A DNA stretch of 64,000 nucleotides from Candidatus Babeliales bacterium (GTDB lineage: Bacteria > Babelota > Babeliae > Babelales > JANWKD01), in the NCBI GenBank assembly GCA_963762115.1, contig CAVXJH010000006.1, forward strand, positions 521,662-585,661. Direction: 5' to 3'. Positions 32,217 to 51,120 of this stretch are shown one piece after another. The translations under genes were made by a program, and so were the position numbers. The notes under the pieces were generated by a model. It was not told the DNA's origin. It saw only the letters and a list, made by a program, of their open reading frames with translations, and did no database searches. The stretch's first letter is position 1. Each line of letters starts with the position of its first letter.

Positions 32217-32780
32217 TTATGCATTGGCGATTTGTTTGAACGAATAAGCGCCAAGATTTGCAGCAGTTAAAATACACGCAACATTAAGTAACGTCTGAAC
32301 ACTCCACAACTTATATTCATATTCATGTCGTTTTAAATTAGGATCAAAATAAGGTACTGAGCCTAAGACACTATTTTGATGCATAACGAGAGAAAGTGCG
32401 GTTGCAATTGTTGCACAGATTATTGGAAGAGGAAAATCTAATTGTGCGTTGCAGCATGCAGCAAGTAAACCCAAAATAAATCCATCAATGCATTGGCTTG
32501 CAAAAATGCGAATACCTAATGATCCTTCAATTTCTATATATTTATCGAAACTTTTAATGGCAGCTTCGGTATAAAACGTTGTACGAGACGGAATCATGCC
32601 TTGACCAGGAAAGCTCTTTTCTCTGCCAACTTTCATAGCATATCTATTTTTGGAGAGTTCATCAGCTGCTATGCGTTGCTGTTCTGCACCTTCTTTTAAT
32701 TTGAATACACTTTCTAGGAAAAATGCATTGGTAAAAAAAGTAGTTGTCATTAAAGCTAAGAAAATAGTTTTTTTTATCAT
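32217..32780 (-). CDS. Membrane hypothetical protein
   Basis: Signal peptide plus three hydrophobic segments. Confidence 0.65.
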   Translation of the reverse strand: MIKKTIFLALMTTTFFTNAFFLESVFKLKEGAEQQRIAADELSKNRYAMKVGREKSFPGQGMIPSRTTFYTEAAIKSFDKYIEIEGSLGIRIFASQCIDGFILGLLAACCNAQLDFPLPIICATIATALSLVMHQNSVLGSVPYFDPNLKRHEYEYKLWSVQTLLNVACILTAANLGAYSFKQIANA

Positions 32781-34200: not shown

Positions 34201-36885
34201 ATGAAAAAAGCATCAATAATGTTATCCGTTTTCTTATTTTTTATTTCTTACAACATCAAATCTGAACTTTTTTTGCAGATAAATCCTGAATTTTTGGATA
34301 GTTTTTATTTTAAAAATCAGGAAGCGAAAAATCATTTAAAGCATATTGTTAATCATCGAAGTGCGCAAGAAACAGAGAGTTATTTGAAAAGTTTACCTTT
34401 AGAAACACAAGAGATGCTATATGATACTATGCAAACAAGTGTAGATGAAAAGGGCAATACGCTATTTCATTTACTTGGAGATAAGAAGATAGTTGAAAAA
34501 TTTTTATTTTTGAAACCAGATGTAAATAAGAAAAATAAATTAGGCATTACGCCATTAATGATGTTTATAGCTTTGAAAAATAGAGAAGGTGCAAAAATAT
34601 TACTTGAAAAAGCTAATAATGTAGATGTGAATTCACGAGATAATAATGGTTGCAATGCATATCATGTGGCTTTTTTTTGCGATGGTTGTGAAATTATTAA
34701 AAGTCTGTTAGAGAAAGGGCTTGATATTAATTATGTTGATAAATGGGGTAACACACCTTTAGTTATGGCTATCGATATTGGCAACATTGAAATTGTACAA
34801 TTACTTGTTAATTGGCATGTAGATGTCAATAAACCTGCCGAAAGGTATTTTAATTTCGACAAAGAAGATGCTCATTTAAAATTTTCTGATAAAGAATATT
34901 TACCGCCATTGATTCTTGCAATAAACCGTTATAACCCTGAAATAGTCAAAATTTTAATAGAGGCAGGGGCTGATACAAATATAATCATACGAGAAAATTT
35001 TAATCCACTTATAATCGCCATTAATTTTGCTTCTAATATTGAAATTATTCAACTACTTCTTAAGGGGGGTGCTAATAGTAATCAAAAAAGTCATGGAATG
35101 ACAGTTTTGATGCATTTAATTCCTATTGATCGCAATAAAAAGGAAAAGCGTAGCATTACTCAATTATTGTTGGATAATGGCGCATGTATACATGAGGTTA
35201 CGCAAGAGAGTAATGATAGTATCTTCTCATTTTTGGGTTTAAAATTTATAGATAAAAATATCCCTAACATGGAAAATCATTTAAAGGCAACAAACATATC
35301 AGCACTTATGTGTGCTGCACTATACGGTGACAAAGCTATGGTAAAAACGTTACTTAAGGCGGGTGCTCAGGTGAATGCGGTAACCTCACAAGGTATGACA
35401 CCGCTTATGTTTGCTGTTATTTCTGGAGAATTAAAATGTGTGCAACTACTGATTAGTGCTGGTGCAGATCTTCATGCTCAAGATGTTTTTGGGATGAGTG
35501 CATATCAGCTTGCGATAATAACTAACAATCCGTACATCGTTTATGCATTTCATTTAAGTTTTGAAGTAGAAAATTATCAAAAAGATGCAATAGAAAAAAA
35601 TGACAATCAAGGAATTGTGAATGCTGTTGAAAATCATTCTACGACACCAGATATTTTATTAGATAACATTATTTGCGGAAAAATTTCTGAAAAAGATTTT
35701 AATAATGAATCACTCGATAGCTCATTGGAAGATGTATCATATCAAAAAGAAGATCGCAAAATTTCTTTATGGCAGGGATTTCCTCAAAAAGAAGATGAAA
35801 AGAAAAATACTGTTTCTCCTTATATCGATGATGCATTGTTAGAAGATATTTTGAAAAAAGTTCCACCACAACAAGATTCGTTTGAGATGCGAAATATAGA
35901 ATTATGCACTAGAAACAATAGGGATCGTTATGATGAAGATTTTAATAATGAATTATTAGCTCATTGTCCTGAAAAGTTGCGCTCTATAGTTGAGGAATTA
36001 AAAAATAGAGATCTCTTTGATAATGATTTATATCATGGCATTATTCCTCATCACCTGTTGCTTGTTGGGCCACCCGGAGTCGGTAAAAGCTCATTGGCAA
36101 AAGCAATAGCAGAGATTTGTCATATATCATATGCTTTTATTAAAGCACCACTTTTAGCTAATGAATATACGAATTCAGGACCAAGCAATTTAAGCAGAAT
36201 TTTTGATCCAATTTTTAAAAGCGATGAGCCATGTATTGTTATAATAGATGAATTGCAAACACTTATTCAAAAAAAAGATAGAAATAGTCTTGATACAAGC
36301 TGCGCTGAAGCCTTATGGATTTTACTTGATGAATGTAAAACAAAAAATAATATTTTGATTATAGCAACGGCAAATGAAATTGATGTGTTGCCTGAACAGT
36401 TACGCAGTCGTTTATCAAAAAGTGTCCATCAAATAGCTTTGCCAAAATTATCAGCTCGAGAGCGAATAATTGCTTATTATGTTTCAAAGGTTCCGGTGAA
36501 CATATCATTAAAAATCACTGAAAATGATATAAAACACTATGCAAAAAAGACGTGCGATTTTTCAATTCGTGATTTGGAGGATATGATCGAAGTCGCAGTT
36601 TCAAACGCATATTTTAAACGATGTAAACAACAAATACATCATAAAGTTTTAGATAAAAATGATTTGGAACAAGCATATCAACATATAAAACAACAAAAGA
36701 ATTCAGGGTTTTTGCCTGAATGGTGCAAAGATGTTAAAAATTATATTATACCTGCCATTGCAGTGCCTATGGGTATTGCAGCCGTGCAATTGGCTGTACA
36801 ATGCTATATTTCTTATACATCACATCAAATTTCTTATGCGCAAGCGGAAGCTCATCATCAGGATTTTTTAGCGTTAAGGAAATAA
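34201..36885 (+). CDS. Secreted ankyrin-repeat + AAA+ ATPase protein with C-terminal hydrophobic helix
   Basis: Many TPL..A ankyrin repeats; GPPGVGKS, IIDELQ, IATAN, LPEQLRSR. Confidence 0.9.
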   Translation: MKKASIMLSVFLFFISYNIKSELFLQINPEFLDSFYFKNQEAKNHLKHIVNHRSAQETESYLKSLPLETQEMLYDTMQTSVDEKGNTLFHLLGDKKIVEKFLFLKPDVNKKNKLGITPLMMFIALKNREGAKILLEKANNVDVNSRDNNGCNAYHVAFFCDGCEIIKSLLEKGLDINYVDKWGNTPLVMAIDIGNIEIVQLLVNWHVDVNKPAERYFNFDKEDAHLKFSDKEYLPPLILAINRYNPEIVKILIEAGADTNIIIRENFNPLIIAINFASNIEIIQLLLKGGANSNQKSHGMTVLMHLIPIDRNKKEKRSITQLLLDNGACIHEVTQESNDSIFSFLGLKFIDKNIPNMENHLKATNISALMCAALYGDKAMVKTLLKAGAQVNAVTSQGMTPLMFAVISGELKCVQLLISAGADLHAQDVFGMSAYQLAIITNNPYIVYAFHLSFEVENYQKDAIEKNDNQGIVNAVENHSTTPDILLDNIICGKISEKDFNNESLDSSLEDVSYQKEDRKISLWQGFPQKEDEKKNTVSPYIDDALLEDILKKVPPQQDSFEMRNIELCTRNNRDRYDEDFNNELLAHCPEKLRSIVEELKNRDLFDNDLYHGIIPHHLLLVGPPGVGKSSLAKAIAEICHISYAFIKAPLLANEYTNSGPSNLSRIFDPIFKSDEPCIVIIDELQTLIQKKDRNSLDTSCAEALWILLDECKTKNNILIIATANEIDVLPEQLRSRLSKSVHQIALPKLSARERIIAYYVSKVPVNISLKITENDIKHYAKKTCDFSIRDLEDMIEVAVSNAYFKRCKQQIHHKVLDKNDLEQAYQHIKQQKNSGFLPEWCKDVKNYIIPAIAVPMGIAAVQLAVQCYISYTSHQISYAQAEAHHQDFLALRK

Positions 36886-36913
36886 TTATTGTTGTGGATA
36901 GTTTAATGCATTG

Positions 36914-37321
36914 TTATTTTTTTATATCAGTGATAATTTTAGCGACTAATGCCCAATTTAGTAAGCCAAATAACAATGATGCAACTCCTGCACTTCCAAT
37001 AATTGATCCTATGATTGTTCGACCTTTTTGCTGTTTTCTGTGCCATTCTTCACTTCTTTCTTGTTCTAATGCGCGAGCAATTCTACTTAAAGGAACTAAT
37101 GGAATATCATAAGCTTGTGCAATCCCCTCAACAATGAGCCCTATGCCAATAGCACTGGAAATTAGCCCAATAAAAAAATATATCGGCATTAAACTTTCTA
37201 TATCAGAAGAATTTAGATTTTTTGATGTAGCATGAGAATGGCTATTTGCTGCATTTATATTGGCAATGAAAAAAGAAAATATACAGGTTAGTAAAATAAT
37301 ATGCTTGAAGATAAAAGACAT
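36914..37321 (-). CDS. Membrane hypothetical protein
   Basis: Signal plus two Gly-rich TM helices. Confidence 0.65.
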   Translation of the reverse strand: MSFIFKHIILLTCIFSFFIANINAANSHSHATSKNLNSSDIESLMPIYFFIGLISSAIGIGLIVEGIAQAYDIPLVPLSRIARALEQERSEEWHRKQQKGRTIIGSIIGSAGVASLLFGLLNWALVAKIITDIKK

Positions 37322-37442
37322 TTTTCCCTTATTGTTTTTTGTGTGTTAATAATTAAATGCATTGTTGACTGTTTTTTGGTTGATGACATCTAATCGCCAA
37401 TTTTCATAGTTATTCTCTTTAAAATTAAAAATTATTTAAAAA

Positions 37443-37997
37443 TTAATAAGATAGTAGCAGAGGGAAAATTTTGCTAATTAATATTGCATAACCAAATTCA
37501 ATTACAAAGAAACGAATTGTATTTAACATCCAAAAAAAACTAGCGGTATATCTAATAATTAGGTTCAGTATTTGAGATTCGGGAGGGTAAGATAGGTATA
37601 CCTTTTCTAATACTTCTAGATCAGTGGAACTCGGAAAAGCATGCATCCCACTAGAAAAACCAATCCAAGCCATAATAATAAAAAGCAGTTGCACGCCTTC
37701 TGGTTGTTCAAGGTGATCATCAAACCAACTCATAGGAAGACATGAGGGTAGAGTAAAAATTGCGCACACTAATGTGTTAATAATAAACGGGGCGATCGTA
37801 ATCAGATATTGTTCAATAACATTTGTTGTTGGCTCATACTCAACGTACCCAGATACTTTATTTGAGGGAAGAAAATATTTAACTTTATATACAGTTAATC
37901 CAAATTTATCGCAAAAGAGTCTGTGGGCTATTTCATGGATGATAACACCGGGAAAAGTAATTATTGTTATGAGTATAGTAGGAATAATAATTATCAT
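37443..37997 (-). CDS. Membrane zinc-metalloprotease-like protein (HExxH)
   Basis: PGVIIHEIAH, IAPF, AFPSSTD; several TM segments. Confidence 0.75.
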   Translation of the reverse strand: MIIIIPTILITIITFPGVIIHEIAHRLFCDKFGLTVYKVKYFLPSNKVSGYVEYEPTTNVIEQYLITIAPFIINTLVCAIFTLPSCLPMSWFDDHLEQPEGVQLLFIIMAWIGFSSGMHAFPSSTDLEVLEKVYLSYPPESQILNLIIRYTASFFWMLNTIRFFVIEFGYAILISKIFPLLLSY

Positions 37998-37999
37998 GG

Positions 38000-38404
38000 T
38001 TATTTTCTCATGAAATAAGGTTTAAGTTCTTTTGGCATATGGGTAGTTACAATGTCCAAATCAGTATCATTCAGCTTTAATTTAATTTCTTCGAGTATAT
38101 TTAATGCTTTATGAGTTTTATTAAGCGCAAAATAGGTCTGAACTGCGTGGACTTTTGCAATTTTTGAGTTTTTTAGAGAGGACAAGATATATTTATATCC
38201 ATTAAGTGCTTCGTGATAATTGCCCCAGATGAAATTTTGTTGTGCGACTTTTAGAACACGATTTAATTCATAATATTTTGGAAAAAAGAATGCCAAAAAA
38301 TACAACAATCCTAAAAATGAGCCAAGTGCTATTACTCTGAAGGTAATCGGATACGAATGGGGTGGTATTGCACTCAATGTTTCATTGTTTTCTACTTCAA
38401 ACAT
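38000..38404 (-). CDS. Membrane-anchored TPR-like protein
   Basis: One TM helix then GNYHEALNGY / HKALNILEE helical repeats. Confidence 0.55.
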   Translation of the reverse strand: MFEVENNETLSAIPPHSYPITFRVIALGSFLGLLYFLAFFFPKYYELNRVLKVAQQNFIWGNYHEALNGYKYILSSLKNSKIAKVHAVQTYFALNKTHKALNILEEIKLKLNDTDLDIVTTHMPKELKPYFMRK

Positions 38405-38468
38405 ACTCTTCTTTCAAATTATTGTTCATAGCCCCTTATATGTATACTTTATGAGTTTTCTAAAATAT

Positions 38469-38998
38469 TTAATGTTTTGATAGTTCAAGTTGTTCTTTAA
38501 CCAAAAAATTTCTAAATCGTTGAATAATATGCGCTAAATTTTCTGCAATAGAATGGTTATTGAAATTATATTCATCATCAGAAGCAGGAGGCATATAAAT
38601 TAAGAACTCATTCATTTCGCTAGGATGATCAAAGTCCCAATATACACTTTCAATTGCATCTATAAGTTCTCTATTACTATAATTTTTATCAAGTAAGGAT
38701 TGTAATTTTATAAAACGCCATTTTTTTTTTCAATGTTCCACTCTTTAGAATTTTCTTCTATTTTTATATTTAATTCTTCCAATAATTTTTCTAATTTATC
38801 ATTGATTTCAAAATCATCTTTTAATCCATATGCTAATTCTATGATATTAATATTATCTAATTTATAATGTTCAGATAAATATTGAGATGCAAAATCTTCT
38901 ATGAATTTACTGTTAATTAAATTTAATTTTCTTCCTATGTATATCGTTTTCCAAGAAATAGAAATATTATTTTTTTTAAAATCATTTAGCTGAATCAT
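38469..38998 (-). pseudogene. DUF2247-like immunity protein, frameshifted in a 10-nt homopolymer
   Basis: ATG overlaps the toxin stop; adding one A at 38721-38730 gives EKKKWRFIKL...IESVYWDFDHPSEMNEFLIYMPP...SKH*. Confidence 0.75.
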
Positions 38999-41900
38999 TT
39001 TTTTCCTGGCCAAATATTAGGTTTTCCTGTTATGATTCCATCTTTAATGAATAATCTATGAACAACGCCTTTTGAAGGATCGGGATGCACAATCCATTCA
39101 AAAATACCTTTTTCACCATTTAATGATCCTTCTATTTGATATAAAATTTTTCTTACTGTTTCTTTGTCATATAGATCGAATTTTTGAGCATATTCAACAT
39201 AATTATCAATTATATCACTAAATTTATGATAAGAATCTAATTTTAATGCTTTGCCACTTCTAATATTTTTAGTGACTTCATTATCAATAATTCGTAAGAC
39301 ATTATTTTCAGTATCAAGTGTATGTGATAAATCTTTTGAGAAAGCTTCATTACTATAATTTTTAGATTTTTGAGCTTGTCCCTCATTCATAGATTGTAAT
39401 AATGCAGAAGTTCCTTGAATGGCAGTTGTACCAAATGGTGTTGATCCAATAATCTCTCCAACGCCTTGGACGACTCCAGCAGCCTCTGTTGCCAATTCTT
39501 GTATTAAAGCAATATTCTGAGGTACAGCAAGCATATTTCCACCAGACATACTCGGCGGTATAAATTCTCCCATAGAAATTATGCAGTCGCCCATTACTCG
39601 GCTAATTAATTTAGCGCCACTGCCTAAGGCTTTATTTGCAGCGAGGTCAACAAGTAATTTTGCAACAAATTCTTTTTTATGTTCAATGGGTAGTTCTTTC
39701 CAATTTTTAGAAAATGCATGAACTGCTTCATTATATTTTTTGCTAAACTCAAATGCTTCTTTTTGCGTTGCTCCAAAAGCACTTATATTGTTTTTGCTAT
39801 AATCAACGACACAAGAACAGAGAAAATGCCCTAATTCTCCAAAGTCTTTAGCAGCATTCAATAAATAATTTCCTGGATGAGTTATTGTTTCATGCGCATA
39901 ATCGCCAATTTCTTTTAATGGCAAATCGGTAAAAACAATTTTAAAACAGTCCTTTATAACTTCTTCTACATTTTCTGCTAAGGTTAACTGCGTATCTCGA
40001 TTTAGTTTTATTGTTTCAATTTCGCGTAACGCGGATTCTTGTGATGATGCTAAATATTCATGAATAATTTCATTTTTCAATTCACCATTATCAGAATTCC
40101 ATAATTTGTCATTCTCCAGTAATTCTCTCATTAATGAGCGTTCATAAATCATGTTTAAATCAGGTTTTTGCTCAGGAGATGTCTGGAATTTTTGCATTTC
40201 ATGAGAACTGTAAGATTCGGTTTTACCCGTATGCAACAATTCTAAACTCTGTCTGAAGAAGGGAAGATCTTCTTGTGATTTGGTGCGACACATTTCGGGT
40301 CGATTTAATACATCCAATTCACGGACTATTTCTGCAATAGTTCTATTCAATGGTACTTGTGATGTTGCTGAATGATCTAATGATTCGAATTCTTTATTTA
40401 ATTTTAGTAATAGCGTTTGTAATTGATCTATGCGTTTTTCTGACCCACCTTCTTGTTTTAATCTATTGATTTCATTTGATAGATTAGTGCGAGCAGCAAG
40501 AGTTCGACGAGATATGTTTTCTTTTGCAACAAGATCTTCTGATAAAGAGAAATTGTTATTTTGTAAAATTGTTTTCTCATTTTCTGTAGGTTTTATATTT
40601 TGAGGAATTGCGTTAGAATTTGCAGTAGATTCTGATCTTCGTACTATTGGACCACTTAAGGTTTGCAGTCGATGAGCAATCCTTTTACTTGCCTCAGTTA
40701 TTTTGCATAGATCTTCAAATGTATTCACTTCATGAAATTGTTTATCTATGGCGAGTAGATCAGACTGATTATCCTTGATAAACTTTCGTGGGGCATTTTT
40801 GTTTTGTAGATTGTTGGTTGTATCTACTAAATTGAGCACAGTCTTCATTACATTATCTTGAGCTCTGAGTTGCATTTGATTTGGTTGATCTAAAATTAAG
40901 CTACCGCATTGAAGAATTGTTGTATTTTTTTTGCCTTCTAATGCATCGACTATTGCTGAGGCTAATCCTAAATGTAGCTCTTTATTCAAACCTTCAGTGG
41001 AACAAGCTTTTGCGATGTAGCCAACGGCATTACGGTGTGCCTGTAACATATGTAATGGTTCTTGTGAAGCAAGTACAGCAACTTTAAGTAAGAGCACACG
41101 TTCTTTAAGATGTTCTGGTTGGATAATTGATGAGGGTATAATGATATCTTTGAATATACATTCATCAAAATTATAAAGGCGAGGTAATCCTCGTTGATCA
41201 AAAAGTGGTTTGATAGCTTCATAATATTTGGGGTCATTTTGTTTTTCTGTTAAGACAGAAATAAAATGATCTATAACTTTCATAGGTTGCTGTGAAGCCG
41301 CATAAGGAGCTACTTCATGCAATAAATCCATAATTTCCAGATTTGCAGAGATATTTAATGGTTGCAAAATATGCTTTGTACAATATTCTGTAGAAAGCTC
41401 TGCATAAAGTTTGCTTATAATGAGATAATCATCTTCTGGTGAAGATGAATTGTACATGACATGATCTTTGTAGCAATCAACTATATATTTTGCTGCTTCT
41501 AATTGATGATCCTCGAATAAGTGGACTACATTTCTTAATTCTTGATTTTGAATATTTTCCAATACTCGTTGTCGCATTTCAAGTGGATTAGAAGGATAAA
41601 GATCCGATTTTTTATGCAGTTCTTGCTTCATCCAAAATGCATTCTCTTCATTGCAAATTCTTTGAAAACAAGGTCGATTTTCTTTTTTAAAGTTTTCAAT
41701 TACCTGCTTATATGCATTAGGCATCTCTTTTTTTAAATAATTTGTTATGGTACGAGCTATTTGATAATGATCTTCGGCGCTTAAGGAAGCTTTTAATGAA
41801 CCATCGGGCTTGCATAAAATATAGGTCGATTGATTAATAGCATTTTGAAGATGTACGTTTCTTTGTGTTAAATCTTGAGTTATTCCTGGCACAGAAAAGG

Positions 41901-42276
41901 TAAGATTGGTGAGTGCGAGTGTAGATCGTGTTGATTGAGTTTGAGCTGCTTTACTGAGTGCATTTGCATAATTTACGACCTGAGCATGTATTTTAAGAGT
42001 TTCAGCAAATTGTTTTTGTTGTTCAGCTGAAAACGTATGTGTTTGAGCTGGTAATGCTGCATAGGGAGTGTTTGTGCGATGGCGGAGTTGATCGTATGAA
42101 GCTTCGCGCATCATAAAATCATTAAGTGAATTACTTAATGATGAAGTATTATTAGTGTTATAGCTAAAATTGCTATTTATTGTTATAAGGCTTCTTCTAT
42201 CTTGATCTTCCATGCATTGTGAGTTTTGGAAAATATGAAGAGTAAAGAATAAATTTATAAAAAATAATTTTTTCAT
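38995..42276 (-). CDS. Large secreted polymorphic-toxin-like protein with C-terminal toxin domain
   Basis: Signal ...NSQC|ME; Gly/Ala-rich pre-toxin segment; tip RSGKALKLDSYHKFSDIIDNY..LYQIEGSLNGEKGIFEWIV..HRLFI..G.P. Confidence 0.8.
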   Translation of the reverse strand: MKKLFFINLFFTLHIFQNSQCMEDQDRRSLITINSNFSYNTNNTSSLSNSLNDFMMREASYDQLRHRTNTPYAALPAQTHTFSAEQQKQFAETLKIHAQVVNYANALSKAAQTQSTRSTLALTNLTFSVPGITQDLTQRNVHLQNAINQSTYILCKPDGSLKASLSAEDHYQIARTITNYLKKEMPNAYKQVIENFKKENRPCFQRICNEENAFWMKQELHKKSDLYPSNPLEMRQRVLENIQNQELRNVVHLFEDHQLEAAKYIVDCYKDHVMYNSSSPEDDYLIISKLYAELSTEYCTKHILQPLNISANLEIMDLLHEVAPYAASQQPMKVIDHFISVLTEKQNDPKYYEAIKPLFDQRGLPRLYNFDECIFKDIIIPSSIIQPEHLKERVLLLKVAVLASQEPLHMLQAHRNAVGYIAKACSTEGLNKELHLGLASAIVDALEGKKNTTILQCGSLILDQPNQMQLRAQDNVMKTVLNLVDTTNNLQNKNAPRKFIKDNQSDLLAIDKQFHEVNTFEDLCKITEASKRIAHRLQTLSGPIVRRSESTANSNAIPQNIKPTENEKTILQNNNFSLSEDLVAKENISRRTLAARTNLSNEINRLKQEGGSEKRIDQLQTLLLKLNKEFESLDHSATSQVPLNRTIAEIVRELDVLNRPEMCRTKSQEDLPFFRQSLELLHTGKTESYSSHEMQKFQTSPEQKPDLNMIYERSLMRELLENDKLWNSDNGELKNEIIHEYLASSQESALREIETIKLNRDTQLTLAENVEEVIKDCFKIVFTDLPLKEIGDYAHETITHPGNYLLNAAKDFGELGHFLCSCVVDYSKNNISAFGATQKEAFEFSKKYNEAVHAFSKNWKELPIEHKKEFVAKLLVDLAANKALGSGAKLISRVMGDCIISMGEFIPPSMSGGNMLAVPQNIALIQELATEAAGVVQGVGEIIGSTPFGTTAIQGTSALLQSMNEGQAQKSKNYSNEAFSKDLSHTLDTENNVLRIIDNEVTKNIRSGKALKLDSYHKFSDIIDNYVEYAQKFDLYDKETVRKILYQIEGSLNGEKGIFEWIVHPDPSKGVVHRLFIKDGIITGKPNIWPGKK

Positions 42277-43886
42277 CACACCCATTTAAATGGCCAAGAT
42301 ATAATGTTATAAGCTTTCTCGCAAATATCAGATCGGTTTTCTATAATAGGATAGGCTAATTTTGCTCCATAAGAGATGCATCCTATAATAAAAGCTGCAT
42401 TAGGATTTATGTCTTTTAAAATAGTTGATACTCCTATTCCAGCATCGCAAGCCATTTGTACGTGAGAGTTTCTCATTTGCTCATTATGAAAATCACTTGA
42501 TTGTTGTTTACTTTCATTATGTAATTGATTGGTTTGTGCTAAGCTTTGTCCTTGCAGTATTTTTGCCTGATCTAACCCTTCAGTATGAAACTTTTGTGCT
42601 TGAGCAAGACTTGCAAGATGAAATTCTTTTGCCTGTGCTATCGATTCTCGATGAAATGAGGCATTTTGAGCAAGGCTTGCAAGGTGCATTTCTTGTTGTG
42701 CTTTTGCTGCCTGTATTTGCATGCAATAATTAAATCCAAGAGTTATTACAAGAGGGATGCTGATTTGTAATGCTGGCATAATCGCGGGTTTAATAAATTC
42801 ATACGTTTTTGTTTGCCAGGATTCATGAATGCCGTTATTATTTTTTATATAATCCATGGCTTGTAATAATTCTTTTTTTGTTAATTGTAATGTAACATTT
42901 TGATCTTGATTGCCTGCTTTTTTGATATCGATACTTTCTATTATTTCTTCGAACATTCTATCAAAATCACGTGCTGCAAAGCCATTTGTTTTTTTTGCCA
43001 GGTAATTGATATCACGCTGTGTTAATGAAATTGTTATTAAGCAGCTAATTTTTGCAATATGGTAGTTAATATTGCTTATTCGATCATAGAAATCTGGTAA
43101 TGTAATTTTATAACATCTGTTAGAAAGACGTTGTCTTAGTTGTTTGGGTAATCCATTTAATTCATTTGCAGTGCCGATAAATAAAATATTTTTTGTTTCT
43201 GTAATTTCATCTAATAGTTGCCAGAGAACGCTTGCTGCATTATTATCATTTTTGTTTTGATCATGTTTTATGATTTTTTGCATTTCATCTAAAATAATAA
43301 CATGAGGATCATTTAAATCTTGTATTCTATTAAAAGTATCATTAAGTTTACTTTCTGCTGAATTTTGATATTGATTGCCAAGTGTTGTAGCTTTTATGAT
43401 GGTGTATTTTAATTTACAATATTGTGAAATTGCAATTGCTAAAGTAGTTTTTCCAACACCTGGAGGTCCTACAAGAGTAATGAAAGGTGGTTTGTCATAG
43501 CGTTCTCTTTGATATAAATCTGATTTAGAAGCGACTCTTGCTTTTACTGTTTCTATAAAAAATTGTAATTTTTCAGGAGAATCATCAATATATTTTTGTA
43601 TTCTTTCCTCGTCAAATTTTGTGTTTCTTTGGCGAATAGAACCTGCCATTTGTTGGGCAGTGAAATCATCTTTAGTATTTAAGTTAAAGTATTGATAGGC
43701 ATTATCGACTGGAGGGATTTCTTTTTCTGTTTGATCATCATTTTGTGTATGAGGAGGAAGCAATCTTGATGGTTTTTCTTTAGTCTGCTTTTGTTTAGGT
43801 ATGGGGAATCGTTGATCTTCTTCCATTGCATGTGCAATAAAAAAACTTAAAAATATACTTACTATTAAAAATGATTTGTGCTGCAT
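42276..43886 (-). CDS. Secreted AAA+ ATPase with TM helix and 11-residue repeats
   Basis: Signal ...IAHA|ME; GPPGVGKTT, IILDEMQ, IGTAN, LPKQLRQR. Confidence 0.88.
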   Translation of the reverse strand: MQHKSFLIVSIFLSFFIAHAMEEDQRFPIPKQKQTKEKPSRLLPPHTQNDDQTEKEIPPVDNAYQYFNLNTKDDFTAQQMAGSIRQRNTKFDEERIQKYIDDSPEKLQFFIETVKARVASKSDLYQRERYDKPPFITLVGPPGVGKTTLAIAISQYCKLKYTIIKATTLGNQYQNSAESKLNDTFNRIQDLNDPHVIILDEMQKIIKHDQNKNDNNAASVLWQLLDEITETKNILFIGTANELNGLPKQLRQRLSNRCYKITLPDFYDRISNINYHIAKISCLITISLTQRDINYLAKKTNGFAARDFDRMFEEIIESIDIKKAGNQDQNVTLQLTKKELLQAMDYIKNNNGIHESWQTKTYEFIKPAIMPALQISIPLVITLGFNYCMQIQAAKAQQEMHLASLAQNASFHRESIAQAKEFHLASLAQAQKFHTEGLDQAKILQGQSLAQTNQLHNESKQQSSDFHNEQMRNSHVQMACDAGIGVSTILKDINPNAAFIIGCISYGAKLAYPIIENRSDICEKAYNIISWPFKWV

Positions 43887-44066
43887 TACAAAGCTCCTTG
43901 CGTCATTAACTTAAGATGATAAATTGATACAAGGCTATCGTCTTTTTGATAAAAGTAAATGTGGTTTGATTTTGTAAGGTGCTTTTGCAAGAACCTCTAT
44001 TCTGTGATAGTATACCGTAAAAAAAGGTACACATTTTAGTAACCCCTTCAATACAAGGAAAACATA

Positions 44067-45122
44067 ATGCAAAAACAACAATATTCATTATTAATGGTAG
44101 CGCTTGCTTCATTAGTTATACTGCCACAATGCGAATGGCTTGAATCAAAAAAATCTGCTGAACCTACGAGTACAACCGGTGTTGAAACTCAAGCAACTGC
44201 AGGATCAAAAGCAGTAGCACCTACAATAGGAACTGGTAAAGGCATTGATGGTGAAGTGCTTATAACGATGTATGATGCAAAAGTGCCAAAAGCAAGTATT
44301 AATGACTTTAAAGAATATATTGATGAGTTCTTAGAAGCACAACCACAATATAAACAAGTTTTTGAAATGATGCCTGGCGCAGAAGAACAAATTTTTGATG
44401 GTTTAAAGAATGAACTAGTTCTTGCTGAATGGGTTGAGAAGAACGGCATTAATAAAAAGCCTGAATATTTAAAAGATGAAGAAAAAATTAAAAAATTTGG
44501 CCGTCGCAGCTTGAATGTGAAATATTTCCAAGAAGCGTATCCGGTGAAAGTTACTGATTCTGAAGTCAAAAAATATTATGACGAAAATAAGAACAGTATT
44601 CCTCAGTTGATGCTCGCTCCGGGTGGTGTTGCTGCACAAGGCGTGATGTTTGATACTAAAGCTGCAGCACAAGCTTTCTATGATAAGGTAAAAGACGTTA
44701 AGACAAATTTTGAAAGTGTTGCAAAAGAATCAACCCTAAGCGTGAAAGATTTTGGCGAAGTTAACAATCAAAGTTTCAATGTTGATGGCGTGATTCGTAA
44801 AAAATTGCTTGATGCTAAGAAGTTTCCTGTCGTTGAATTAGTTGAAATCAATGATAAATCATTTGCCGTGGTTAAAGCAACCGGTAAAAAAGAACCAAAT
44901 TATGTACCATTTGAAGATGTAAAATCTGGTATTGAAAATATGCTAAAACAACAAAAAATTGCTGAAGCATTAAACAAAGAGCTTGATAAACTCGCACAAG
45001 AATATAAAGTTGTTGTAAACAAAGATTATTTTGAGCGCAAGAAAAAAGCTAAAAATCCAGAAGCAGCAATGCAATCAGAAGAAGTGCCAGCTACTAAAGC
45101 TGCACCAATGAGATCAATGTAA
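44067..45122 (+). CDS. PrsA/SurA-like parvulin-type chaperone (possible lipoprotein)
   Basis: Signal with Cys; KVTDSEVKKYYDENK, FESVAKE, PFEDVKSGIENML. Confidence 0.75.
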   Translation: MQKQQYSLLMVALASLVILPQCEWLESKKSAEPTSTTGVETQATAGSKAVAPTIGTGKGIDGEVLITMYDAKVPKASINDFKEYIDEFLEAQPQYKQVFEMMPGAEEQIFDGLKNELVLAEWVEKNGINKKPEYLKDEEKIKKFGRRSLNVKYFQEAYPVKVTDSEVKKYYDENKNSIPQLMLAPGGVAAQGVMFDTKAAAQAFYDKVKDVKTNFESVAKESTLSVKDFGEVNNQSFNVDGVIRKKLLDAKKFPVVELVEINDKSFAVVKATGKKEPNYVPFEDVKSGIENMLKQQKIAEALNKELDKLAQEYKVVVNKDYFERKKKAKNPEAAMQSEEVPATKAAPMRSM

Positions 45123-45140
45123 ACAAAATAGTTATTATTG

Positions 45141-45176
45141 ACATAAAGGGGAATTACTCGTAATTCCCCTTTATGT
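45141..45176 (+). terminator. Intrinsic terminator after 44067..45122
   Basis: acataaaggggaatta-ctcg-taattcccctttatgt perfect stem. Confidence 0.75.
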
Positions 45177-45196
45177 TTTAAAAGACTGGAAGATCA

Positions 45197-46168
45197 ATGA
45201 ATCGAGCTATGAAAACTACCTTTTTCTCATTATTTAGTATGTTAGTTCTTTTTTTTGGTATAAAGGAACTTTCAGCAACAATTAAAGAATCAAATGAGCT
45301 TCCGACTGATGTGCCTACTCAAGAAATGATGGTAGAACAATCTGTTGAAGATAATGATCGTTTCTTGATCAATGAAGTTGCCGTTGTTGTTGATGGACCT
45401 GAGCGTAGATTTTATGTAACCACTCTTGATTTAGAAACCCCAAGCTTTGATGGGAGAATTCCGTCGCTTGATGATATCGTTGATGAAGAATTGATATATC
45501 AAGATGCTCTTAAGCATAAAATTCCTATTACTGAATATGCTCAAAAACATATTCAAAGTATCAAAAAACAGCATAAGCTCTCAGATGAAGCTTTTACTAA
45601 AATTTGCGCGAACGCAGGGTTAGATCAAGCTTCTGCATTAGAAAAATTTGAAAAAATGGGTGCTGGAAACACCATGGTGCAACATAAAGCAGATAGTTTT
45701 GTAGCTGAACATGAAGTAAAAGAATATTATGAGGCAAATCCAATTAGTAAACCCGCTAAATATCAATTGCAAGTTGGCTTTGTTCCTTTTGATAGAAATA
45801 AAAGCGTAGATCAACAAAAGAGCGAATTAGAAAAAACATTGCGTTCCAATCCGGAAGCAATTCATTGGAATGAGCCGTTTTGGCTTAAAGAAGTTGATAT
45901 TGCTGAAGATAAAATGTACGTAACTAAAATGTCGGTTGGTGATATTTCAACGCCGCAGGCAACTGATGGTGGTTTTGAAGTTCTTCGCTTAAAAGATAAA
46001 AAAGATGCTTATGTTGTTCCGCTGGAAAAACGTTATGGTGAAATTGTTCACACATTGCGCATGCCAAAATTGCAGGAAACTGTTGAACAATATAAAAAGA
46101 CTTTGCGTGAATCCAGCTCAATTGTTGATATTAGAAAGCCGCAGGAAGCACGTCATATTTGTGATTAA
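45197..46168 (+). CDS. SurA-like periplasmic chaperone/PPIase
   Basis: INEVAVVVDG, VDEELIYQDA, VKEYYEAN, MSVGDISTP..GGFEVLRL. Confidence 0.7.
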   Translation: MNRAMKTTFFSLFSMLVLFFGIKELSATIKESNELPTDVPTQEMMVEQSVEDNDRFLINEVAVVVDGPERRFYVTTLDLETPSFDGRIPSLDDIVDEELIYQDALKHKIPITEYAQKHIQSIKKQHKLSDEAFTKICANAGLDQASALEKFEKMGAGNTMVQHKADSFVAEHEVKEYYEANPISKPAKYQLQVGFVPFDRNKSVDQQKSELEKTLRSNPEAIHWNEPFWLKEVDIAEDKMYVTKMSVGDISTPQATDGGFEVLRLKDKKDAYVVPLEKRYGEIVHTLRMPKLQETVEQYKKTLRESSSIVDIRKPQEARHICD

Positions 46169-47364
46169 TTATTACCGAATACCTTTATTGCCATTCCATG
46201 TAAATCTTTTAATGCAATGTTGTTATTAAGAGTGCGTTGCATTAATGAGGAACTTTTCAATGCAGGATTTATTTTTTCGGCCTTTTTTTTCTTACATGAT
46301 GCACTATATTCCTGTCTTTTTTGAATGCTTGCTTGAGTTAAATCTTGATTAAAGTAATGCATTCCTAATTGTAATGTTAATGGTATAGCGATCAGAATGG
46401 TATGTTCAATGTAGGGCTTTATGGTTTTATATGTTGTTTTGTACCATGGTTTAAATCTTTTATCGGTATATGTTATAAAAGTAATTGCTTGTTCAAAATC
46501 ATATAGTGTCGGTGTAATTGTTGGTTTGTAATAAGTACACCGTTCAGAAGCATTATAATTCCCTTGTATTACCATTTCTTCTAAATCGTGTGGCGTAAAA
46601 TTTTTAGTTATTTTTCCTAATATGTTGACTTCACATGGGGTTAGGCACGGTGAATGCAAAGCAAGATGATAATTAATAATCTTTTCTCTTTTTTTTTGAT
46701 TGGGCAGGGAAATGGCGTGAGCATTGTATATATGCTTTCTAATCTGCTCGGGTAAATTTTTTCGTTCATTGGCGGTGGCAATAATCAAAAAATTTTTTTT
46801 CTTTTTAAATGTATCTAAAAAACTCGATAAATAATCTGCATCGTAATCTTCGTTAATCATTTGTAAACCATCTAAAATAATTACTTTCGGTTCTTTATTT
46901 TCTTTCAAGGGGCCAAGAATATTTATAAGATCACTTTGACCTGAATGATTATATTGATGTACTAATGCTGGGAATGAGACAAAGGTATAGCGCAATCCAC
47001 ATTTTAAGGCGATTGCTTTTGCCAACGAGGTTTTTCCTGCTCCAGAAGGGCCAACTAAGAGATGCATATTAGACAAAAATGGTATTGCTTGCAATAAATT
47101 ATTAGGTTCGATTCTTTTGGTGATAATTCGGATAATTTTTTGAATTTCTTTTGGACTCTCCTCAATAAGTTCATCAATTAACTTTTCATCTAATTGCTCT
47201 TCTTCTGAGCAATATTTTTCTTGATCTTCCATGCAGTAAATAATATTAGTAGTTAATGATGAAAAAAGAAGCATTATGAAAAAATATTTTTTCCATAGAT
47301 TACTTTGAGGTAAAAATTGTCCTGAGATAAATTTTATTTGGAAAAAATATGATTGAAGCTGCAT
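46165..47364 (-). CDS. Secreted AAA+ ATPase paralogue with degenerate Walker B
   Basis: ...IIYC|ME; GPSGAGKT; VIILDGLQ (Glu missing); IATAN; C-terminal hydrophobic helix. Confidence 0.8.
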   Translation of the reverse strand: MQLQSYFFQIKFISGQFLPQSNLWKKYFFIMLLFSSLTTNIIYCMEDQEKYCSEEEQLDEKLIDELIEESPKEIQKIIRIITKRIEPNNLLQAIPFLSNMHLLVGPSGAGKTSLAKAIALKCGLRYTFVSFPALVHQYNHSGQSDLINILGPLKENKEPKVIILDGLQMINEDYDADYLSSFLDTFKKKKNFLIIATANERKNLPEQIRKHIYNAHAISLPNQKKREKIINYHLALHSPCLTPCEVNILGKITKNFTPHDLEEMVIQGNYNASERCTYYKPTITPTLYDFEQAITFITYTDKRFKPWYKTTYKTIKPYIEHTILIAIPLTLQLGMHYFNQDLTQASIQKRQEYSASCKKKKAEKINPALKSSSLMQRTLNNNIALKDLHGMAIKVFGNN

Positions 47365-47689: not shown

Positions 47690-48334
47690 ATGAAAAAACT
47701 ATGTATTTGCTTAAATGAATTAGAAGTAAAAGTCTTTGTAGGTATTTTATTATTACTAGGTTTTCCTTACTTGTTATTTTGGCTCAATAAAGATCTTAAT
47801 TATTCTAGTTCTGATTATGCTAATATTTTAACGTCAGCAGCTACTTTACTAACTGCTGTTTATGCCACTTTTTTACTCGTGCCGAATTACTTTAAGCAAA
47901 AGAGAGCTGAAAATTTAACTGAAGCTGCTAAAGAAGTATTGAGCATTTTGACAGAAACTGAAGTAGAGATAAAAAAACTTTTCTTACTTAAAGATGAAAC
48001 TATAAAAAGTTTTTACAATGATTATGCAAAAGAGCATATTAAAGTTCAATTTAAACTATCTTTTTTGCTCAACAAATTACGAAATGGTTTATTGTTAGTA
48101 AGAAAAAAAGTTGATTTAGTAAAAAATGAAAAAATACCCAACTTTGTAGAATTAGTTGCAAGTTTAGAACAGGTATTGAGTCAAAGGCCTACAAGTTATC
48201 CAGCTTCTTTTATAACAATAAATTTTCTTAGTGAATGTGGTCTTTTAAACACAGGTAAAGATTCACTTGATCTCGGTAAGCTCAAAGATCTCAGAGAGGT
48301 ATTGTTATCAATTTATGAGTTAGACGAGCAATGA
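47690..48334 (+). CDS. Two-TM membrane protein, first gene of nuclease-helicase island
   Basis: Two N-terminal TM helices; stop overlaps the helicase start (ATGA). Confidence 0.7.
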   Translation: MKKLCICLNELEVKVFVGILLLLGFPYLLFWLNKDLNYSSSDYANILTSAATLLTAVYATFLLVPNYFKQKRAENLTEAAKEVLSILTETEVEIKKLFLLKDETIKSFYNDYAKEHIKVQFKLSFLLNKLRNGLLLVRKKVDLVKNEKIPNFVELVASLEQVLSQRPTSYPASFITINFLSECGLLNTGKDSLDLGKLKDLREVLLSIYELDEQ

Positions 48335-51120
48335 AAAAATCAAATTTTAATCAAATAATTGAACATTTTTCATCTTTCGCTCCTGAAGTAAAAGGAAGAA
48401 AATTTGAAGTGCTTTGCAAGTGGTTTTTAGAAAATGATTTTACTTATTCAGAACAAATCAAAAAAGTTTGGCTTTGGCAGGAGTGGCCTGGTAACTGGGG
48501 CAGGGATAAGGGCATTGACCTTGTCGCAGAAACTTATAGCGGTGAATTATGGGCAATACAAGCAAAAGCTTATGATGAAAGTTATTACATAACAAAAGAA
48601 GACATCGATACATTTTTAAGTGAGTCTTCTCGTAAGGATTTTTCATTTCGTCTTTTAATTTCAACGACAAATAATATTGGCCCGAATTCTCGTGAAGTAC
48701 TCCTTGCTCAAGAAAAACGGGTTGGTCTTTGTCTTCGTGATAATTTAGAATTGTCTGATCTTGATTGGTCATTAATTCTAAAAAATTCAGGTGAAAAATT
48801 TAAACAAGATCCAAAAATCCCACGTAAACATCAAGAAGCTGCAATTAATGCCGTTATGAAGGGCTTTGAACAATCTTCTTATGGTCAGATTTATATGGCT
48901 TGCGGTACAGGGAAAAGTTTGATTGGTTTATGGTTAGCTGCAAAATTAAATGCCAAAAATATTCTTGTACTAGTCCCTTCTATTTCTTTAGTAGCTCAAT
49001 TATATAAAGAATGGTCGAGTAATGCTGGTGATTTTACTTTTGATCCTATTTTTGTGTGCTCAGATCCTACTGTAAGTAAAGCTAATGATGATTGTATGTC
49101 ATTTGATTCTATTGATCTTGGCTTTCCGGTTACCACTAATGTTGATGAAATTTTAACTCAATATTTTCGAAACACTTCTCGGTCAAAAATTATTTTTGCA
49201 ACGTATCATTCTTCTCCAATTATTGCTCAAGCATGTTCGCAAGAATTTTCTTTTGGTTTTGATCTTGCCATTGCTGATGAAGCCCATCGATGTGCTGGTG
49301 CTACAACGAGCGATTTGGCAACAATCGTGGATAAATCTGCTATTAGAACGAAGCATAAATTATTCATGACGGCGACGCCAAAAATATTTTCAAATCATGT
49401 TAAACAAAAGACACAAGAAATTGCTTATGAAATTGTTTCGATGGATGATGAAGAAAAATTTGGCCCAATATTTTATAAATTACCGTTTTCTGATGCCATA
49501 AAAAAAGGACTTTTGAGTGATTATCAAGTGCTTATTTCAGTTATGGATAATGCAACATATAGGGGATATGCAGAACGGGGACGGTTTGTGTCTTTTGAAA
49601 ATCATGAAATCGATGCTCGCACATTAGCGAGTCAACTTCTCATTGCAAAAGCTATAAAAAAATTTGATCTAAAAAAAGTCATTAGTTTTCATAGTCGTAC
49701 AAAGGCTGCAAAAGATTTTATTAAGACATTGCCAAAAGCATTACCATTATTACTTGAATCAGAAAAGCCTGTTATTGCATACCAAGCGATACTTTTTGGT
49801 GATATGCCACAATCAGAACGGCATAAAATTTTAAAGCAACTTGATGAAACATCTGATGGTGCAGCTTTAGTTGCTAATGTTAAATGCCTTTCTGAAGGAG
49901 TTGATGTTCCTTCTCTTGATGGTATTGTATTTGTTGAACCAAAAGGTTCTGAAATAGATATTATACAAGCAGTAGGTAGAGCAATCAGAAAATCTTCAGA
50001 CAAAACATTGGGAACTATCATTATTCCCTTGTTTGTTGATGGTATGTTAGATGAAAATCTTGCATTGGATCAATCTTGCTTTAGATCAATTGGAAAAGTA
50101 CTCAGGTCTCTTAGAGCACATGATGATATAATTGCAAAAGAGCTCGATAGCATACGTTTGGAATTAGGAAAAAAAGTTTATACAAGACCATCCAGGTCAA
50201 GTAAAATTTTTTTTGACATATCCATTGAACTTAGTAGTGACTTTAGCGAAACTTTAAAACTTAAGATTTTAGAAAATATTGTTGAACAATGTTCTTCTGA
50301 ATGGAATTATCAGTTTGAGTTACTTAGGGAATTTTATCGATTAAATAATAGATGGCCAGCTCAACACGAAGAGTTTCCTATTGAGAATAAGCTTGGCATG
50401 TGGTGTAGTTATCAGCGAACACTCTATAAGAAAAAATTTCTAAGAAATGAACAAATAAAAGTCTTAGATTCAATTGGGTTTGTTTGGGATTTATTAAGTG
50501 CTGTTTGGGAAGAAAATTTTTTATTATTAAATAGCTTTAAAAAAGTCAATGGTCATTGTAATGTTCCTGCAATATATTTTGAAAATCAAACACTTGCTAC
50601 ATGGGTATCTGTGCAACGCAGAGCATTTAAAAAGGGATTATTATCTCTAATGCAGTTAGAAAAGTTAAATTCGATTGGGTTTGTTTGGGACATATTAAGT
50701 GCTGTTTGGGAAGAAAATTTCTTATTATTGAATAGCTTTAAAGAAGCAAACGGGCATTGTAATGTTCCTGCAAGATATCTTGAAAATCAAATTTTGGCTA
50801 CATGGATTTGTACACAACGTTATGATTACAAGAAACATAGAATGTCTCAAGATCGTATTAACAAGCTTAATTCTATCGGATTTATTTGGGACTTGATTGA
50901 TAAGAGTTGGGAAAATAGTTTTTTCAAATTATGTAAATTCAAGGAAATCAACGGGCATTGCAATGTGCCAAAACGATATGCTAATGATCCTTCATTGGCT
51001 AGATGGGTAATGACGCAGCGAAAATCATATAAGGATGGAAAGTTATCTGAAAAGCGTATTAAAAAATTGAATGAAATATGTTTTCAATGGTATCAAAAAC
51101 GAGGAATCTCTAATATTTAG
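48331..51120 (+). CDS. Mrr-like nuclease + SF2 (ResIII/DEAH) helicase + four helicase-associated (HA) repeats
   Basis: GIDLVAE..WAIQAK; MACGTGKS; ADEAHR; MTATP; EGVDVP; QAVGRAIR; four W...GHCNVP..LA.W...QR..GF.W units (201-bp period at 50470/50671). Confidence 0.9.
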   Translation: MKKSNFNQIIEHFSSFAPEVKGRKFEVLCKWFLENDFTYSEQIKKVWLWQEWPGNWGRDKGIDLVAETYSGELWAIQAKAYDESYYITKEDIDTFLSESSRKDFSFRLLISTTNNIGPNSREVLLAQEKRVGLCLRDNLELSDLDWSLILKNSGEKFKQDPKIPRKHQEAAINAVMKGFEQSSYGQIYMACGTGKSLIGLWLAAKLNAKNILVLVPSISLVAQLYKEWSSNAGDFTFDPIFVCSDPTVSKANDDCMSFDSIDLGFPVTTNVDEILTQYFRNTSRSKIIFATYHSSPIIAQACSQEFSFGFDLAIADEAHRCAGATTSDLATIVDKSAIRTKHKLFMTATPKIFSNHVKQKTQEIAYEIVSMDDEEKFGPIFYKLPFSDAIKKGLLSDYQVLISVMDNATYRGYAERGRFVSFENHEIDARTLASQLLIAKAIKKFDLKKVISFHSRTKAAKDFIKTLPKALPLLLESEKPVIAYQAILFGDMPQSERHKILKQLDETSDGAALVANVKCLSEGVDVPSLDGIVFVEPKGSEIDIIQAVGRAIRKSSDKTLGTIIIPLFVDGMLDENLALDQSCFRSIGKVLRSLRAHDDIIAKELDSIRLELGKKVYTRPSRSSKIFFDISIELSSDFSETLKLKILENIVEQCSSEWNYQFELLREFYRLNNRWPAQHEEFPIENKLGMWCSYQRTLYKKKFLRNEQIKVLDSIGFVWDLLSAVWEENFLLLNSFKKVNGHCNVPAIYFENQTLATWVSVQRRAFKKGLLSLMQLEKLNSIGFVWDILSAVWEENFLLLNSFKEANGHCNVPARYLENQILATWICTQRYDYKKHRMSQDRINKLNSIGFIWDLIDKSWENSFFKLCKFKEINGHCNVPKRYANDPSLARWVMTQRKSYKDGKLSEKRIKKLNEICFQWYQKRGISNI

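Follow-up and report, generated by a model that had tools for sequence, protein, structure and literature searches.

What purpose could an exported AAA ATPase serve, and where would it meet ATP? This question is raised by a 64,000-nucleotide stretch of the genome of a Candidatus Babeliales bacterium (assembly GCA_963762115.1, contig CAVXJH010000006.1; this whole stretch is called the window), in which three genes, designated A1, A2 and A3, encode related AAA proteins. The initial annotation had interpreted their products as signal-bearing ATPases with a C-terminal membrane helix and had assigned them a host-directed role. A survey of gene neighbourhoods across Babeliales revealed a context which that annotation had missed: A2 opens an AAA-toxin-immunity operon which is conserved across Babeliales, and this association is well supported.

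Conserved linkage of AAA and toxin genes

The survey comprised 34 stretches around matches to a five-sequence profile and 40 around matches to a 32-sequence profile, all picked by AAA score; the set of toxins started from 20 seeds in which either the tip or a neighbouring immunity gene could be recognised, and was extended by BLAST. Loci L002-L004 (an rRNA locus and two irrelevant Brachyspira matches) and L018, which overlaps L017, were left out of the counts. Three AAA fragments without Walker A do not appear in the tree and count as 'other'; L022, whose toxin is divergent from a sister-clade AAA gene, was scored as unlinked. Within the clade of A1-A3, a toxin gene lies next downstream on the same strand for 41 of 66 AAA genes (32 directly and 9 after one AAA paralogue or small open reading frame (ORF); 24 lack it and 1 lies at an edge), as compared to 0/39 for other AAA genes (37 without, 2 at an edge). 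The second batch of loci alone (L039-L078) gave 27 linked clade genes out of 44, and the linked cases were drawn from four families. A toxin gene within 6 kb was found for 11 of the 24 unlinked clade members, A1 and A3 included, versus 5 of the 39 other AAA genes. AAA and toxin genes are mostly separated by less than 100 bp or overlap, and their order and strand are fixed.

The linked toxins show the organisation of polymorphic toxins, namely a constant region with exchangeable tips, an immunity gene directly downstream and orphan modules. Pfam identified EndoU, Ntox21, Cytotoxic (colicin E3-like) and DUF4258 tips over a shared body, many further tips having no Pfam family, and the genes following the toxins include DUF2247 (Imm38), DUF6980 and CdiI_ImmP. 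Orphan tips were seen in L014, L040 and L043, and at the same site of a same-genus genome (L006) a related toxin body carries another tip. The similarities of AAA proteins and toxin bodies are correlated over 32 pairs (Spearman 0.44, not reached in any of 5000 permutations) and nearest neighbours agree in 16/29 cases; this co-divergence also holds across two paralogous cassettes in both the present genome (G000) and G001. The closest homologues of A2 and those of its toxin reside on contigs of matching size (26704 and 41819). With the exception of one match called just 'bacterium', the named matches of the toxin body belong to Dependentiae or Babeliales. A homologue in a relative of the same order is named as Candidatus Babeliales, which bears out the lineage assumed initially.

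The toxin-immunity cassette of the window

In the window, A2 overlaps the start of the toxin gene by 10 bp (Table 1). The 1096-amino acid protein matched no Pfam, NCBIfam or PADLOC family, and for its tip neither a Pfam family nor a solved relative was found. The model of the toxin was poor (mean predicted local distance difference test score (pLDDT) of 51, 6 sequences; no Foldseek match at E 0.001). The last 120 residues of the toxin matched 11 plasmid records. In the two records which were opened, the matching segment ends a 957-amino acid Bacillus protein and a Duffyella haemagglutinin-repeat protein, respectively, and a DUF2247 gene comes next in both. DUF2247 is listed as the immunity family Imm38 (PMC3482391; PMC11566119). 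We predict that the cassette protein is a polymorphic toxin with a toxic tip which the product of the next gene would neutralise.

Ten consecutive A (38721-38730) disrupt the frame of the Imm38 gene, and this frameshift may be real or an assembly error; the region was not covered by contigs of two DNA runs. A second locus of this genome, on contig C3, has the same gene order. Its toxin is present as two ORFs with the middle missing, has a body related to that of the window (31% identity) and ends in another tip; the locus also contains a TPR-like gene and an unbroken DUF2247 gene. Its Imm38 is 64% identical to that of the window over 92 residues and could cover for the broken copy.

Table 1. 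Features of the AAA-toxin-immunity region and related AAA genes in the window
Feature	Coordinates	Strand	Description
A1	34201..36885	+	ankyrin repeats and an intact AAA domain behind a signal-like N-terminus, then a hydrophobic helix and a short tail
A2	42276..43886	-	first cassette gene; one AAA domain (about residues 93-351) behind a signal-like N-terminus, then a hydrophobic helix (about 366-384), a His/Gln repeat of 11 residues and another hydrophobic segment
A2 hendecad (11-residue) repeat, residues 397-476	42459..42698	-	modelled as long helices
A3	46165..47364	-	lacks the Walker B Glu and the arginine finger and is predicted inactive; no toxin after it
Predicted polymorphic toxin, 1096 amino acids	38995..42285	-	signal-like N-terminus, mostly helical Babeliales-family body, exchangeable C-terminal tip
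Toxin tip	38995..39354	-	60% identity to Bacillus plasmid proteins, 35% to the last part of a haemagglutinin-repeat (CdiA-type) protein from Duffyella
Imm38 (DUF2247) immunity gene	38469..38998	-	identified by Pfam; ATGA overlap with toxin stop; frame broken

The AAA proteins and their catalytic residues

A1, A2 and A3 are all present as ORFs, and each encodes one PF00004 domain scoring above the cut-off (E values of 5.6e-25, 3.5e-26 and 1e-16, respectively). In the monomer model of A2 (mean pLDDT 79), long helices come after a confidently modelled AAA domain, and a Foldseek search returned p97, FtsH and spastin as top matches, in agreement with the classical AAA type proposed earlier. A quick tree of 76 rows separates the family from FtsH and CDC48 as a clade of its own, with a support of 98 in the Shimodaira-Hasegawa-like approximate likelihood ratio test, and a FastTree of 106 rows assigned 66 rows to this clade, both trees being without bootstrap. 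In a protein atlas, the AAA of a relative fell in unnamed AAA clusters only.

A2 and A3 are 33-36% identical to A1. A module shared by the three proteins had been described as an AAA domain with a subsequent motif, a hydrophobic helix and a Gln/His-rich tail, and most of it was recovered: W-x7-I-x-P is invariant after the AAA domain, and the helix reaches best 19-residue Kyte-Doolittle means of 1.94 (A1), 1.67 (A2) and 1.07 (A3), the last value being weak. The tail and the Tyr/Phe position of the motif do not extend to A3, in which Thr occupies this position and the Gln plus His fraction is 0.06 (A1, 0.23; A2, 0.15). The tail of A2 has a period of 11 with 24 identities, other periods within 3-15 giving at most 7, and the second hydrophobic segment comes after this repeat. 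Linked and unlinked clade members were not distinguished by the length of the tail (p 0.35).

Walker A, Walker B, sensor-1 and the arginine finger are kept in A1 and A2, and all six catalytic positions are intact in A2. The six positions are likewise intact in 56 of 65 clade members (35/41 linked and 21/24 unlinked), hence most of them are probably working ATPases; the mean column identity in the 32-sequence family alignment is only about 20%.

A distinct arrangement was observed in family f19 (L013, L014, L043, L047, L070 and L074), where two AAA paralogues stand in tandem ahead of the toxin. The first has a His/Gln coil and little or no hydrophobic helix, the second a helix and a short tail, and the pair could form a heteromeric ring.

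Predicted export of AAA and toxin

Signal peptides were scored by a strict hand rule with Kyte-Doolittle values, a loose rule having been dropped after 5 of 10 cytoplasmic controls passed it. The strict rule passes 53/66 clade AAA proteins, 1/10 cytoplasmic controls and 87/4209 internal windows (2.1%); A3 fails owing to its long n-region. As 346 of the 748 ORFs of at least 250 amino acids in this genome also score as signal-like, predicted export is not special in itself. This share is near the 44% of signal-like proteins reported for Chromulinavorax (PMC6561590). In A2, A3 and the toxin, a small residue followed by Met-Glu closes the signal-like segment, a motif found in 142 ORFs with a hydrophobic core, in 5 without and in 16 at a control position. 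The N-terminal hydrophobic run is short (clade median of 15 residues versus 21 for the FtsH of this genome), and a basic n-region, present in 57/64 clade AAA proteins, would put the AAA outside the cytoplasm even if the segment were uncleaved. Sec export of AAA and toxin is therefore likely as judged from sequence, in line with the export proposed initially.

A putative membrane-anchored motor and its alternatives

We propose, with a probability of roughly 45%, that the A2 product is a co-exported, membrane-anchored ring motor which would use host-derived ATP to unfold or thread the long toxin across a membrane. AAA and toxin would both leave through Sec, and the AAA would assemble as a hexamer which the helix after the AAA domain would anchor in the membrane. 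The ring would then thread the toxin, its presumed substrate, toward the anchoring membrane, which may be the producer's envelope or that of a target; competing bacteria, co-infecting kin, would be the likely targets. In classical AAA rings the C-terminus lies on the exit face, where the substrate leaves and where the protease of FtsH sits. With a C-terminal helix on this face the ring would push the chain toward the membrane, which is the opposite of Msp1.

ATP could be available to the motor in the cytosol of the host, or in the periplasm of a bacterium which imports it. The genome encodes three ATP/ADP (TLC) translocases, two Omp85 proteins and two secretins, and in view of the translocase and Omp85 genes, host ATP would cross the periplasm. 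The earlier argument that an exported ATPase makes sense only in the host cytosol or at the vacuole surface is thus too narrow. Msp1/p97-like extraction of host proteins was not sustained as the main role either, given that the conserved operon is the dominant signal and that the C-terminal helix lies on the exit face; the suggestion that effectors are pulled across a membrane came close to the threading favoured here. The type IV and type VI secretion system (T4SS, T6SS) markers VirB10 and VipB were not found in this 95% complete genome. A more daring version, in which the two Sec-exported proteins form an injection device whose AAA ring plugs into a foreign membrane via the C-terminal helix and the 11-residue coiled coil, burns host ATP and threads the nuclease toxin into either a rival within the same host or an organelle of that host, seems doubtful. 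If true, it would be a toxin delivery route which works only inside an ATP-rich host.

Several observations weigh against a threading motor. Catalytic residues are lost in 6/41 linked AAA proteins, four of them in one family (f6), with the toxin kept, and a fifth member of f6 also lacks the Walker B Glu. Pore loop 1 gave a mixed picture: Tyr or Phe is present in 55/65 clade members (31/41 linked), but K/R/Q and N/H/D follow, so that the loop reads aromatic-K/R/Q-N instead of the classical consensus aromatic-hydrophobic-Gly. The helix after the AAA domain reaches a Kyte-Doolittle value of 1.2 in 24/41 linked versus 15/24 unlinked members, and one subclade is without it. Two of the three window genes (A1 and A3) have no downstream toxin. 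Furthermore, adjacency by itself also makes AAA and toxin diverge together, and related genomes do not count as independent cases; both inflate the correlation.

A limitation to the role of the AAA came from the toxin side. With a profile of the toxin pre-tip domain, matches were obtained in 105 of 230 Babeliales genomes, and as many as 13 in a single genome, a distribution that points to competition among intracellular parasites inside protists. Of 261 matches 150 were listed, and 40 new ones were hand-picked going down this list; 37 remained after three contig-edge toxins had been dropped. An AAA gene lies directly upstream of only 6 of these 37 independently found toxins, hence the toxin family is delivered without a neighbouring AAA at most loci; moreover, the three N-terminal domain classes of linked toxins have no homology to one another. 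AAA-linked toxins are longer (median 972 versus 695 amino acids, p 0.014), and an AAA gene is upstream of 4/8 toxins with an N-terminal domain learned from AAA-linked toxins versus 2/29 without it; for two more of those 8, an AAA match to the family profile converges within about 2 kb. The AAA is thus an accessory of a toxin subset, mostly long ones.

The catalytically dead f6 copies which keep their toxin would suit an AAA that is mainly a non-catalytic toxin partner (a surface anchor, chaperone or vesicle-sorting adaptor), standing beside the toxin as MafA beside MafB, with ATP hydrolysis dispensable. Toxin loci without an AAA would then resemble class 2 mafB loci without mafA, MafB being still secreted after mafA deletion (PMC4287609); a relative sheds outer membrane vesicles (PMC6561590), and part of the clade lacks the helix. 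This explanation is a real rival of the motor, yet we consider it unlikely, as the catalytic positions are intact in most linked proteins despite the low overall identity. Similarly unlikely is that the proteins are host-directed effectors which unfold or extract host proteins at the vacuole or an organelle membrane, their proximity to toxins reflecting the clustering of secreted genes in variable islands. This would be most plausible for A1, since the ankyrin-AAA fusion recurs (P0077) and adjacent AAA and ankyrin genes occur in G001; 24/66 clade members have no downstream toxin, 13 of them none within 6 kb of fetched DNA, and signal-peptide AAA-Ulp1 fusions of Babela have been proposed to act in the amoeba (PMC4378268). 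Clustering alone would hardly account for the fixed order and strand, the short gaps or overlaps and the co-divergence, nor for the absence of linkage in the 39 other Babeliales AAA genes, many of which also have hydrophobic N-termini, and a C-terminal anchor has the wrong direction for extraction, given the geometry of such rings.

FtsH is the uptake route for nuclease colicins, and an AAA which stays in the inner membrane of the producer, its motor facing the periplasm, could likewise admit the toxin into the cytoplasm, or else clear or recycle toxin molecules. A signal peptide with a stop-transfer helix would give this topology by default, the genome is that of a diderm which imports ATP, and the window genes adjoin two peptidyl-prolyl isomerase (PPIase) genes of periplasmic type. 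However, the helix has only moderate hydrophobicity and part of the clade lacks it, and a producer which took its own nuclease back in would merely load its immunity protein; we regard this as the least probable of the explanations considered.

Paralogues of A2 and neighbouring genes

The 1.53 Mb genome (order Babeliales) encodes five paralogues of the AAA family, two of them on contig C3, so that the 'family of three' stands for the window but not for the genome. A1 has ankyrin repeats besides its AAA domain (Pfam) and converges on the end of the cassette at a distance of 2.1 kb from the toxin gene. Its ankyrin-AAA fusion has the ortholog P0077, and in G001 an A1-type AAA gene is followed by a separate ankyrin gene with 27% identity to the A1 repeats. 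The ankyrins of A1 may serve as a substrate adaptor, as suggested initially. In A3, the Walker B region reads ILDGLQ with Gly in place of Glu, as had been recognised; His replaces the arginine finger as well and about 10 residues of the post-Walker B loop are gone, which suggests that the enzyme is probably dead. Both trees place A3 as sister of a toxin-linked intact AAA in the same-genus genome G001. In our best reading of these data, A1 and A3 are paralogues which derive from the cassette; A1 has become fused to ankyrins, and A3 is predicted to lack activity. A3 looks like a decaying leftover, although it could still be a regulatory subunit. The AAA which G022 has at the site of A3 belongs to another subclade, and this weakens the idea that the site is an ancient and conserved one.

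The likely start of one C3 paralogue (L001:7272-7361) lacks an ATG. An ATT in frame, preceded by AGGAG, stands at the beginning of a signal-like segment which is very similar to that of A2. Beside the A1-type gene at both loci lies a gene for a signal-bearing protein of 187-192 amino acids without Pfam family (window 32217-32780 and L001:12713-13291; 30% identity). Two adjacent PPIC-type PPIase genes (window 44067-46168) lie between A2 and A3, and such a pair also flanks AAA genes of the A1-A3 clade in G001 and G022. Right after A3, a 929-amino acid restriction-nuclease and helicase protein with four helicase-associated (HA) repeats is encoded (48331-51120) beside unannotated ORFs.

Further toxins and AAA proteins were encountered in Babeliales. 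Loci L081-L120 contain many AAA-free toxins of the same family with 450-1400 amino acids and very diverse tips, most of them followed by a small gene. Other AAA classes with hydrophobic N-termini, FtsH-related with or without a protease-like region, were found in L021, L023, L027, L028, L029 and L031-L034, none of them toxin-linked. L037:5971-7539 and L038:8351-9898 encode coiled-coil and AAA proteins with generic Pfam AAA families only; their layout resembles that of mitochondrial ATAD3, but an ATAD3-specific family was not matched. A signal-bearing protein of 1194 amino acids has four Walker A motifs (L030:3723-7307), and the profile search returned proteins of up to 2350 amino acids with up to seven matched AAA stretches. 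The present genome also encodes an FtsH-like protein of 880 amino acids with two tandem AAA modules before the protease-like region (G000:C3:371527-374169), and two-match frames of similar length occur in several relatives.

Comparison with known systems

The Babeliales proteins share the fold, Walker A and B, the sensor-1 Asn and the arginine finger with the classical AAA clade (p97/CDC48, FtsH, spastin/Vps4, Msp1). They differ in forming a separate clade and in having one AAA domain, no protease, no N-domain and a C-terminal anchor. NCBIfam scores of A2 and A3 are far below the cut-offs, and p97/CDC48 was rejected on account of the single AAA domain in place of an N-domain and two AAA domains, and of a score of 51.6 bits against a cut-off of 802 (A2). 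An identity with FtsH was dismissed since neither M41 nor another peptidase family was found, helices follow the AAA domain and the clade is separate. Msp1/ATAD1 has an uncleaved N-terminal membrane anchor and no C-terminal one, whereas the clade members mostly combine a short basic signal-like N-terminus, which may be cleaved, and a second hydrophobic helix after the AAA domain; the extractase was therefore rejected, too. Anti-phage AAA systems (IetA/IteA, TRIP13) did not fit: IteA scored 34.5 bits against a cut-off of 510, and PADLOC returned generic AAA entries only, leaving toxin and immunity gene unmatched.

The cassette resembles MafA-MafB-MafI of Neisseria, in which an accessory gene precedes a signal-peptide toxin with lineage-specific body and variable tip, an immunity gene and orphan modules (PMC4287609; PMC3482391), and in which the accessory gene is likewise present at only some loci (PMC4287609). 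In contrast, the accessory protein is a lipoprotein there and an AAA ATPase with C-terminal helix here, the Babeliales toxins lack DUF1020 (Pfam), and the bacterium is an obligate intracellular parasite of protists. An AAA+ ATPase as signature neighbour of polymorphic toxins is known from T6SS (ClpV) and Photorhabdus virulence cassettes (PVC; CDC48-like AAA), and the trafficking table of the same source names AAA+ genes only for these two, its Sec-dependent toxins having no signature neighbour (PMC3482391). There the ATPase serves a phage-tail apparatus, whereas here ATPase and toxin both have signal-like N-termini; no tail-apparatus genes were seen among the scanned window neighbours, nor VipB in the genome, PVC-specific genes not having been searched.

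In the same phylum, Babela massiliensis has expanded signal-bearing AAA domains in AAA-Ulp1 fusions, some of them inactivated, and these are a precedent for exported AAA domains; the window proteins lack a peptidase domain, and the parts of that source consulted state no toxin-immunity link (PMC4378268). Searches of the literature on toxins, AAA proteins and secretion in Dependentiae, Babeliales, Babela, TM6 and Vermiphilus gave no description of an AAA-toxin system, although the additional files on expanded families of Babela may include these genes. The AAA-toxin-immunity cassette is a real, conserved and apparently undescribed variant of Sec-dependent polymorphic toxin systems, for which the mechanism given above is a hypothesis. 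We know of no way by which polymorphic toxins with only a Sec signal get into their target, and the AAA partners of toxins known to us stay in the cytoplasm. Compared to these, an exported ATPase encoded with toxins is a concrete and testable candidate for the target-entry step.

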